DNA of 64,000 bases from a plasmid: NCBI RefSeq assembly GCF_057098645.1, contig NZ_JBXSPU010000002.1, one strand, 5' to 3'. Positions within the stretch are counted from its first letter, which is position 1, and every line of letters starts with the position of its first letter. Made by a program: the position numbers. This document shows positions 47,301-50,300 of the stretch, in pieces.

Positions 47301-50300
47301 CTCGTAAACTGCTCTTTATCGTCCATCACAATCCTTACACTGTAGGGGCCTGTTTTGTCAGACGCGACCACCGGCTATGAACCGACAAGACGTCAGTCGC
47401 CTGCCAGCCCGGGCGAGGTGGAATACAGTTTACCAGTTCCGGCCGACCGACTTTGCTGCCAGGAGACGCTAAATACACTAATATTGAATCGTTGCATCTT
47501 CGATATCCGGGTGACATTCTGGTTCCCGGCTTTTCTGATCGGGTATGTAATGATCAATGCCCCCTCCCCCAGGATAAAATTATCAGGGCGCAAGGGTAGC
47601 TGGAGGAAGGATGGATACCATACATTTCTGCTTAATGCTTTTTTTTTGCTTCTGACGTTCTGGTAATCTAATTTTTATCACGATTTGAAAATGATAAATG
47701 GAATACACGTAATGAGTTACGCCCACCTTTTTGAAAATTGCGATCATGTTATTGAGGGCAACATTCTCCTCGACATTGCGAGTATTCCGCCCGTTCTGAA
47801 AAAGGCCCTGATCTTTCTCATCCAATCCGGACTGGAGCGGGAGGCATTTAACGCTCAATTAACAGAGCTCTTGATATTACCGCAGCCGAATTGTCAGCCC
47901 ACCTGCTTACTCCGGGAAACGCCTGAATGCGGTTCTTTGTCTTTACCTTGTTTTAATTTCACTACATGCTAACGTATGCATACATTAGGCAAAATGGTTT
48001 CTCCAATGGAAAAGACGCAATCACCCGCAGAGCGCTTTTACGAAAGCATTTATTATTCTGATGAAAGCCTGGAAGAGGATTACCTCGCGGAGCTCCGCAA
48101 TTTCAGCAGCGACCACTGGGACACTGCACTGCGTGCCGCCCGTTTGTCTGCGGCGGTAAAGCGTTTCAAGACATCGGAGATGCTTCGCTTCATTCTGGAA
48201 TTCGTTGTTCCCGAGAACGCTCAGGAAGACGCCCCCGATCTGACACCGCTCGCAGCGAAGCGGCTTTGCAACTCCCTGTTCGGCCGGTCTGGTAGCCAGT
48301 CCATTCTTGTCTATGTCTTTGGCCAGGCAGGCCGTGTGCATCGCAGTGCAACCTGTTCCCCCAAAACCATAGAGGCTATCGCTGCTCTTTATCGTTCTGA
48401 CGCTGAACGCTACTGGAATTCAACTCTTGCGACAATTGAAAGGGTCAAACACACCTACCGCGCAAAAATCCGAAACTCCTGATCCAGTTATTAGACCTTA
48501 CGCCTTAATGCTAATGTATGCGTCCATTAGCTTTAAGCGAAGACGGACTTATTCAGGATGCTTTTACCAAAGAAGAACCACTGGGATTGGTTTTGATGGC
48601 TGTGCCAATTTATATTACCGGTCTGATCATGATAGGTACTCTGTTCACATGTAAGAAATGAACAGCCTGTTTCTGTTTAAGGCGAACAGGTTTATTCTCT
48701 TCACGCTTCCATGTCCCCCATAATTTCCCATCCCTCTTCAGAGCAATGAGTAATTGTTTGGTCCTTCAGATTCTCCCACCCTACTGTCTTCGCAGGCCGT
48801 CAGGCAGACACTTTTAAGCCGGTGGTTATAGAGACCAATACGGACGATTTCCTGGAGATAATCCCTTTCCTCCACCGTTAGTAACTGCCCTTCCTTTGAT
48901 TTTGTAATCATGTCCTGCCAGTTAAGCAATTTCTCGTAATTCACATGCTCACTGGTGTCGAGGCAATGCAGCCGGAAGTAACGCATAAACAGCGGGAATT
49001 CGTCGGTCTGGGCGATATCTGAAGCTCTGACGGTGAGCCGACACAAACACACAATGGTGGCCTGCTGCATTCTTATCAGCACATTCATGCTCTGGGGTAA
49101 GTTGTCCGGCAGCTTCAGGGGGCAGTCGGAAAGGCGTTGTAGAAGTGGTCCTGCTTCCGCTGGCTCGCGGCCCTCATATACCTTCAGGGGCTCGGTCCCC
49201 AGTTCCTGCATCATGGGGTGATACAACCATTCGCGTGACTCCGTCGCATCAATGATGATTTTCTCGATACATTCACTGTAGGTACCATCTCGTCTACCAA
49301 GCTGAACCTGACTGATTTCGTATTCTATATCCGGCAGATCAATGCGCAATGCAGCTACCATCTCCGAGGCATGGAGATGGTCGAACGTCAGTTTCCCGGC
49401 CACACTGCGGTCAATGTCCAGAAACACAGCTACGCAGAGATCGTTCACCTTCACAAACAGATCTGCCGTTGCGCCGAACATGCTTCCGCTGCCGCTGACT
49501 TCATCAAGTGGGACCGTGCCTCCATCGTAACCGGCCAGAAGATGCGGGAATCCTAGAAGTTGTTTTTCCTGAATAATTTCAATAATTTTTCCCCGAATCG
49601 CCTCCATCAGGCCATCACAATCACCGAGGAGATCGGTACTGTGGCTATAGTGCCAAAGTTTGACCTCTCCCTGTCTGGCTATCAAATCCGTACGACACCC
49701 AGGACAGATGCAGTTGCATGCGCTTCCTCTGCTGACTTCCGTGATGTCCAGAAACCGTCCGGTTTCGCGATGGAGTCCGAAAGGAATCCCATAGGTATAG
49801 CTCTTTCGCATGTCAGTGCCCCCGCTGAATACATACCTTCACTATATCGGGCGAAGACAGCATGACACTTCGATAAGAAGACTATTTTTCGTGAGATTTT
49901 AATACCGTAACTGAGCGGATTGATAAAACGATGATGATTAGACACGGGTGAAAAGTTACTTTTCCGATTGCCAAAACCTCCACCAGCAGTGTGCCATATT
50001 AATCTGGACGGATTCGGAATTAACGAGCGTTTCTTCAGCTGACTCATTTTTTGGCCGAAAATGGCTTTGTTTTATACACCGCAATTACCTTCAATGCAGT
50101 TTGTGGTTATTAATATAATCCATTATAAATTTCATGAGCTCCGGGTCACTTCGGGCTGAAAAAAGGACTTTCGCTACTTCTTTCATTGCATTTGTCGCAT
50201 TACTGGGTAATGACTCCAACTTACTGATAGTGTTTTATGGTCAGATAATGCCCGATGACTTTGTCATGCAGCTCCACCGATTTTGAGAACGACAGTGACT

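Follow-up and report, generated by a model that had tools for sequence, protein, structure and literature searches.

The window analysed here, a stretch of 64,000 nucleotides from an IncHI1 tet(X4) plasmid (contig NZ_JBXSPU010000002.1), holds a small gene of the YadA plasmid protein family with a short palindrome on either side. What are these two palindromes doing around a gene whose product has no assigned function? In our judgement the balance tips somewhat towards a compact, self-contained autoregulated module, in which the gene's product binds the two repeats as its cognate sites. Points in favour of this reading include the joint occurrence of the open reading frame (ORF) and both sites even in deeply diverged lineages, and the presence of only two sites in the 64-kb window, as is typical of a plasmid. 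The analysis establishes the architecture and its conservation, the geometry of the promoter, the boundaries of homology and the altered palindrome centres in the most divergent protein lineages. The elements of the module are the following.

47948-47953, plus strand: TTGTTT, a -35-like hexamer placed 16 bp before the -10 in the predicted promoter of the yadA-family gene
47967-47975, plus strand: predicted extended -10 TGcTAACGT (consensus TGcTAATGT) in the left arm of the upstream palindrome; TG at 47967-47968, TAACGT at 47970-47975
47968-47989, no strand: upstream palindrome, 22-bp core GCTAACGTATGCATACATTAGG, 2 mismatches to the consensus, outer arms lost; proposed operator
about 47981-47983, plus strand: predicted transcription start, placed from the promoter elements
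47994-48482, plus strand: yadA-family ORF, a plasmid protein of unknown function; stop codon TGA at 48480-48482
48504-48537, no strand: downstream palindrome, core GCTAATGTATGCGTCCATTAGC at 48510-48531, extended arms CTTAATGCTAATG and CATTAGCTTTAAG; proposed second binding site and mRNA 3' hairpin

The palindromes and the gene between them

The initial annotation described a pair of imperfect direct repeats at 47966-47989 and 48508-48530, read as operator sites or as the ends of a small cassette-like unit. Both sequences are located there and have 20 of 23 bases in common. A degenerate search of the window with the 23-mer, allowing up to 3 mismatches, returned the two repeat sites and the reverse-strand self-match of the second; at the same threshold none of 100 dinucleotide-preserving shuffles of the window gave a match. 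Scanning with the family consensus found exactly two sites, at 2 mismatches each, the next best having 7. The shuffles and the consensus scan together rule out a chance origin of the pair. Both copies are individually palindromic (CTAACGTATG/CATACATTAG are the arms upstream; downstream, 12 of 13 bases pair between 48504-48516 and 48525-48537), and because of this the pair is an inverted as well as a direct repeat. The two sites lie about 540 bp apart. The family palindrome is perfect and 32 bp long (TTAATGCTAATGTAYGCRTACATTAGCATTAA), and each of its 13-bp arms consists of two tandem hexamers, YTAATG YTAATG, or of three in the upstream copy of locus L026 and the downstream copy of L032. Judged by their sequence, the window copies are mildly decayed versions of it, each with 2 mismatches and the upstream one without outer arms. 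The central octamer ATGTATGC is identical to the loxP spacer, which we judge a coincidence. The central YGCR varies freely and asymmetrically, as expected for the dyad centre of a dimer site.

Where does the gene start? There are three candidates: ATG 47994, which has an AGG Shine-Dalgarno sequence at 47987-47989, 4 nt upstream; 48006, the start given by RefSeq (WP_000416123.1, 158 aa, labelled 'hypothetical protein'); and 47976, which gives the longest ORF. The Shine-Dalgarno is better at 47994, and a start at 47976, inside the palindrome, is unlikely. The earlier statement that the upstream copy overlaps the annotated start thus holds for the longest ORF alone (168 aa, ATG 47976) and not for the RefSeq start. 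With a start at 47994 or 48006 the upstream copy sits 4-16 nt ahead of the start codon. On the other side, counted from the stop codon, the downstream palindrome starts at 22 nt and its 22-bp core at 28 nt.

The protein belongs to a small family (95 clusters at 50% identity, one of them named YadA by UniRef) whose name refers to the position of yadA in R64/ColIb-P9 and which is distinct from the Yersinia adhesin. On IncK and IncFII plasmids the gene comes after yacA-yacB-yacC. Searching plasmid records by tblastn found the protein in 3255 of them, mostly at about 50% identity, on IncF, IncI/K, pSLT-type and Klebsiella plasmids; identity to the IncI and IncF homologues is 50-57% over the full length and includes the RAARLSAAVKRYKT and TP...GSQ motifs. 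Comparison with Pfam, NCBIfam, PHROG, PADLOC and PDB sequences gave no match, and a fold search of the PDB with the model of the product gave generic helical matches only, with no fold relative. The AlphaFold2 model is confident and all-helical (predicted local distance difference test score, pLDDT, 94; predicted template modelling score, pTM, 0.89). Two of its helices are long (40-67, 119-157). Residues 81-92 and 98-105 form a helix-turn-helix-like pair of a 12-residue helix, a 5-residue turn and an 8-residue helix, and there is a conserved basic helix. The pair and the basic helix are suggestive only as a hint of DNA binding. The protein is basic, and its near-invariant residues are Arg, Lys, Thr, Ser and Gln in a long helix and the helix-turn-helix-like segment; the candidate catalytic-type residues checked vary, Y151 being replaced by H, F, A or V and H112 being variable. 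The gene frequently adjoins replication genes (RepFIIA, repZ-type, Rep3 and Replicase), and in the window it lies 2.8 kb from RepFIA repE with an IS1 between. This frequent closeness hints at a role in plasmid maintenance or control.

How widespread is the arrangement? Both sides of the gene carry the palindrome in all four annotated divergent plasmids (about 50% identity), as they do in 15 of 18 species-representative genome loci, including an Alteromonadaceae metagenome-assembled genome (MAG) at 40% identity; in the remaining three, one of them a 352-bp contig, just the upstream copy is present. Metagenomic homologues at 33-38% identity on small Rep3/Replicase plasmids also have both sites. 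Homologues with flanking palindromes are found on IncF, IncI/K, IncX-like, pSLT, Klebsiella and small Rep3 plasmids. The upstream copy precedes the start codon by about 10-13 nt in the four divergent plasmids and by about 5-60 nt family-wide, and the downstream copy begins 20-55 nt past the stop. The sites are much better conserved than the gene, with at most 3 mismatches per 22 bp against 64-79% DNA identity of the ORFs. BLAST of PLSDB with the 34-mer found the palindrome on at least 4217 of 72,556 plasmids, in 14,212 places, a count that takes each site on both strands, with typically two sites per plasmid. Among complete E. coli genomes it occurs in 1128 of 5426; of its 4194 places 4004 are on plasmids, and it is never annotated. 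The repeat is therefore present on thousands of other plasmids, almost always with the ORF, whereas the initial annotation would have been undone by a repeat found nowhere else and an ORF conserved without it.

Some units carry extra palindromes, either two tandem upstream copies 77-83 bp apart or two downstream copies 90-120 bp apart (L086 at 858-960, L108 at 2587-2692, L113 at 7094-7193, L162 at 1716 and 1839, L164 at 641 and 733). Enterobacterial plasmid sequence also turns up in records of unrelated taxa: L011 and L016, labelled Chryseobacterium, L013, a Collinsella MAG, and L018, a Lachnospiraceae MAG. L013 is up to 99.96% identical to L010, an E. coli IncK plasmid, and over the module L011 equals the Citrobacter contig L012, with the same coordinates and the same site sequences. 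The plasmid DNA in these four records is probably contamination or mis-binning.

Predicted promoter, proposed 3' hairpin and diverging sites

The upstream copy appears to sit on the promoter of the gene. A TTG lies in the sense direction 16-18 bp upstream of TAATGT (core positions 3-8) in 39 of 51 distinct upstream contexts, representing at least 21 unrelated flank families. The same spacing is found in 0 of 46 downstream contexts in sense, 1 of 43 upstream contexts in antisense and 2 of 50 downstream contexts in antisense. TGc precedes TAATGT, giving an extended -10, TGnTAATGT. The upstream palindrome would therefore cover the -10 together with the predicted start, as operators classically do; the dyad-symmetric site thus lies over a predicted promoter. 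At the place where the downstream copy of locus L158 has CTAATG, its upstream copy has TATAAT. A simple consensus promoter scan of the window found none at the gene, because the -35 matches at just 3 of 6 positions. Most solo sites, palindromes standing without the gene, lack the -35. The conserved -35 outside the palindrome also argues that most copies were inherited in place and not recently inserted.

The downstream copy behaves differently. As RNA, the window copy folds at -15.9 kcal/mol (z = -4.3), and downstream copies have z-scores from -3.6 to -5.6; the window upstream copy folds at -4.4 kcal/mol (z = 0.2), no more stable than shuffles. At the three pairs just outside the 32-bp palindrome, 50 unique downstream copies show 31, 23 and 23 Watson-Crick pairs where 17, 12 and 15 are expected, and the pairs are of several types. 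Outer-stem covariation of this sort is absent from the upstream copies. Long, unrelated and yet complementary outer arms occur in L133, L046, L043, L146 and L002. Covariation and stability are in keeping with full transcription of the downstream copy at the mRNA 3' end; the upstream copy would not be transcribed whole, because the predicted start lies inside it. Is the hairpin a terminator? A terminator scan found nothing at either window copy, and no T-run follows the family's downstream copies. A canonical intrinsic terminator was rejected on the lack of a U-tract after the hairpins. Asymmetry of G.U wobble pairs, tried as a test of RNA against DNA, gave an enrichment of T:G mismatches in upstream copies that rests on a few lineages and was not robust. 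Rfam covariance models run over 46000-50500 gave a sole, irrelevant match (E = 0.27) away from the repeats, so that no known RNA family in Rfam matched them.

If the protein recognises the palindrome, should the two not change together? Altered palindrome centres are found in the most divergent protein lineages, several of them in both copies. L158 (protein P0080) has CTAATGGATATATCCATTAG upstream and CTAATGTATATATCCATTAG downstream, with centres GATATATC and TATATATC. L159 (P0101) has GCTCAGGGATATATCTCCTAGC and GCTCAGAGATATATCTTCAAGC, with centre GATATATC in both copies, and L161 (P0062) has GTATCGAT in both, with a TCGA centre. In L033 (P0098) one site is altered, the upstream one, ATGGATATATCCAT. 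The proteins with altered sites are the deepest branches of a neighbour-joining tree. One prediction made from the tree held: P0074, which is 44% identical to P0062, has a TATCGAT centre upstream and TATCAATA downstream. Altered centres that are confined to divergent proteins and shared within a unit are unexpected under a host factor or under a structure-only constraint. Together with the likely -10 and predicted start inside the upstream copy, they support the operator sites that the initial annotation had suggested.

How might the module work? It would comprise, in about 620 bp, the -35, palindrome 1, the yadA-family gene and palindrome 2. A protein dimer sitting on palindrome 1, over the extended -10 and the predicted start, would switch off its own transcription. 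Palindrome 2 would be transcribed whole and form a stable 3' hairpin in the mRNA; as DNA it may serve as a second binding site that aids repression by looping or by blocking read-through. Near-identical 32-bp sites on many plasmids would also be recombination break-points, which could be why the gene behaves as a discrete, exchangeable and deletable unit. Binding of the protein to the sites, repression by that binding and the biological role of the module are what we infer here.

Unit boundaries and competing explanations

The cassette-like unit is borne out in the sense that homology ends within about 5 bp of the palindromes, and the ORF with its repeats is seen as a discrete unit between unrelated contexts. 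In pairwise blastn of such contexts, the stretch of 64-79% identity extends about 5 bp beyond the cores, on the left of the upstream one and on the right of the downstream one, and then stops (for example L007-L018, L009-L018, L008-L016 and L015-L018). An 'empty site' on IncI/K plasmids (L047, L075, L139 and L155) is the same context minus exactly the ORF and one palindrome. Scanning metagenomes for the core returned 120 DNA stretches, about 70 of which also have the ORF, mostly with a site on each side; it also gave 50 solo sites. The IncI/K empty site is one class of solo. Others, such as L034, are remnants cut by a transposon end; true solos occur on Klebsiella IncF plasmids, beside an SRAP peptidase gene, and on IncX-like plasmids. 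The IncX-like context is found in three states: the solo, the solo with a unit 55 bp away, and the unit at the solo. In L153 the order is palindrome, yadA, palindrome, two unknown ORFs and a third palindrome, with a Xer-like tyrosine recombinase adjoining. No target duplications were found around units. The asymmetric centres (TGCG or CGCA) of a unit's two copies occur in every relative orientation.

A partial loss is seen in IncHI-related plasmids (63 records at 80-90% identity), which have lost the upstream palindrome together with most of the ORF, about 900 bp in all, and keep the last 30 codons and the downstream palindrome, as read from L002 (a Klebsiella michiganensis plasmid) at 3990-4150 against 47510-48540 of the window. 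In plasmids of this type the downstream palindrome has lost 2 nt at its centre and has lengthened to a perfect stem of 21 bp (-38 kcal/mol, z = -8.6).

Could the palindromes instead be recombination sites, the ends of a mobile cassette similar to attC or pdif, at which a plasmid or host recombinase inserts or excises the ORF with one palindrome at solos? The sharp homology boundaries in many pairs, the IncI/K empty site, the three states of the IncX-like context and the second, two-gene segment bracketed by palindromes beside the recombinase in L153 all speak for it, as does a 13-8-13 layout similar in size to tyrosine-recombinase sites. However, deletion between two 32-bp repeats explains the empty site equally well, target duplications are lacking and no recombinase is consistently linked. 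In sequence the sites are unlike dif, cer, psi, pdif, loxP, FRT and the attC core, centres in all relative orientations are unfit for uniform excision, arrays are rare at about two sites per plasmid, and a -35 conserved outside the palindrome in at least 21 flank families is not expected of random insertion. We regard this explanation as unlikely. Slightly less probable still, in our estimate, is that the palindromes are purely structural, acting without any protein as stabilisers of the RNA 5' and 3' ends, RNase III sites, insulators or DNA cruciforms. The stable downstream folds, the covarying downstream outer stems with wholly different complementary arms in L133, L046, L146 and L002, and the 21-bp stem that L002 keeps after losing most of the gene fit such a role. 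Against it, the 22-bp core, putative loop included, is conserved in sequence with almost no compensatory change, and the same altered centre in both copies of a unit is left unexplained. The window upstream copy gains no stability over shuffles, upstream copies have no outer-stem covariation and contain the predicted start, no U-tract follows the hairpins, and the scan for terminators was negative at both sites.

A different factor, from the host or the plasmid, might also bind the palindromes, with the ORF as regulated cargo; solo sites on plasmids without the ORF and the lack of a recognised DNA-binding domain in its product would suit this. Yet a universal factor leaves the altered centres in the deepest-branching protein lineages unexplained, and the sites are tied near-exclusively to one gene family in hosts as distant as Alteromonadaceae and on metagenomic Rep3 plasmids, with the E. 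coli matches overwhelmingly plasmid-borne (4004 of 4194). Of the alternatives it seems to us the least probable. A broader proposal, also improbable though no more so than that of recombination sites, is that the 32-bp palindrome is jointly a bidirectional extended -10 promoter, the operator for a palindrome-binding protein of novel fold and a portable recombination site for gain, loss and swap of the gene; solo palindromes would then put foreign genes or replication regions under the YadA of a co-resident plasmid, as a device of cross-regulation or incompatibility.

The reading of cognate sites in an autoregulated module has its own difficulties. No recognised DNA-binding domain was detected with Pfam, NCBIfam or the PDB, and the folds match generic helical proteins only. 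The promoter is deduced from consensus elements that a simple promoter scan passed over. The window copies are degenerate and may work poorly. Solo palindromes on gene-less plasmids (IncX-like and Klebsiella IncF) may reflect a protein-independent function of the site, or be relics. A second prediction from the tree failed, the sites of P0060 being canonical (its sister relation to P0080 is weak), and gene conversion, in place of co-evolution, could account for variants that a unit's two copies share.

Known systems and plasmid setting

Does the module resemble anything already described? A literature search with sequence strings, protein accessions and gene names, incomplete in its coverage, found no description of it. 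Autoregulated plasmid and phage repressors place a palindromic operator over their own promoter and may use a distant second operator for looping, as in gal OE/OI and lac O1/O2. The yadA module is similar in having a palindrome over its own -10 and predicted start, a second site about 540 bp away and a dyad centre free to vary. It differs in that its protein has no recognisable DNA-binding domain or fold relative, in that the second site follows closely on the stop codon and would also be transcribed as a hairpin, and in the site itself, putatively bound, which is 32 bp long, is built from YTAATG hexamers in tandem and is far more widely conserved than the gene. Iteron-flanked initiator genes, such as F repE with incB/incC and P1 repA with incC/incA, also place a plasmid gene between the sites of its own product (here putative), with an inverted-repeat operator at the promoter; the yadA gene, too, is often beside rep genes. 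In contrast, the yadA sites are single palindromes where iterons are arrayed direct repeats, the protein has no relation to Rep families, and the plasmids have separate Rep genes.

REPtrons, in which repetitive extragenic palindromes (REP) accompany a REP-associated tyrosine transposase (RAYT), and IS200/IS605 elements likewise have a gene of about 150-170 codons between similar hairpin-forming palindromes, in a unit of about 0.6 kb. The yadA protein, however, is all-helical without a Y1/HUH match, copies number about two per replicon and not dozens, and the palindromes are perfect and overlap a promoter. This identity was rejected, as the Pfam-A scan found no Y1 HUH transposase (PF01797) and the model is all-helical. 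Acinetobacter pdif modules are genes bracketed by XerC/D sites (PMC6449649, PMC13141974). What the yadA module shares with these and with integron cassettes is a gene unit whose homology ends at short palindromes, the existence of empty and solo sites and, in L153, adjacent bracketed segments beside a Xer-like recombinase. Unlike them, it is dissimilar in sequence to dif, pdif and the attC core, carries essentially one gene family as cargo, and has no arrays, linked integrase or consistent orientation of its asymmetric centres. The best ungapped matches to dif, cer, psi, the pdif consensus, loxP, FRT, KorB OB, parS, Ter, telO and the LexA box were no better than shuffles. The 28-bp Xer/pdif module of XerC arm, 6-bp spacer and XerD arm was set aside, there being no dif resemblance beyond shuffles. 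So was the integron attC, since the consensus palindrome has no GTTRRRY, plasmids have about two sites and no arrays, and no integron platform adjoins in annotated loci.

IncHI1A tet(X4) plasmids such as pYPE10-190k-tetX4 match this region at 100% identity, and about 210 plasmids match it at 99-100%. Two inverted IS1 copies, 45463-46160 on the plus strand and 50221-50918 on the minus strand, enclose 4 kb of backbone with the module and three neighbours, and a third IS1 lies beyond repE. To the left, the IS1-bracketed segment borders on a resistance region, tet(X4)-estT-ISVsa3, at about 43150-45220. The convergent neighbour at 48738-49811 (minus strand, 357 aa) has an N-terminal CoiA-like domain (PF25164, E = 7e-7), is otherwise uncharacterised and is syntenic in IncHI-like relatives (L002). 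A short ORF at 48596-48661 (plus strand), MAVPIYITGLIMIGTLFTCKK, lies between the downstream palindrome and this gene. It is kept in distant IncHI-like plasmids (L002) with 5 base differences in 66 nt, in surrounding DNA that is 71-85% identical; there its ATG is buried in the 3' arm of the 21-bp perfect hairpin. Two of the differences are non-conservative (FT to RP). The short ORF could encode a small hydrophobic peptide of the type I toxin kind, or be merely a conserved 3' untranslated region.

The module is common, and among the plasmids with the palindrome are IncHI1, IncF, IncI/K and virulence plasmids bearing tet(X4), NDM and extended-spectrum β-lactamase genes. Protein, exact 32-bp site and predicted promoter together offer a ready hypothesis for this orphan 'core' plasmid gene. 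Should the sites also favour exchange of the module or cross-talk between co-resident plasmids, there would be consequences for plasmid compatibility and for how resistance plasmids evolve as mosaics.

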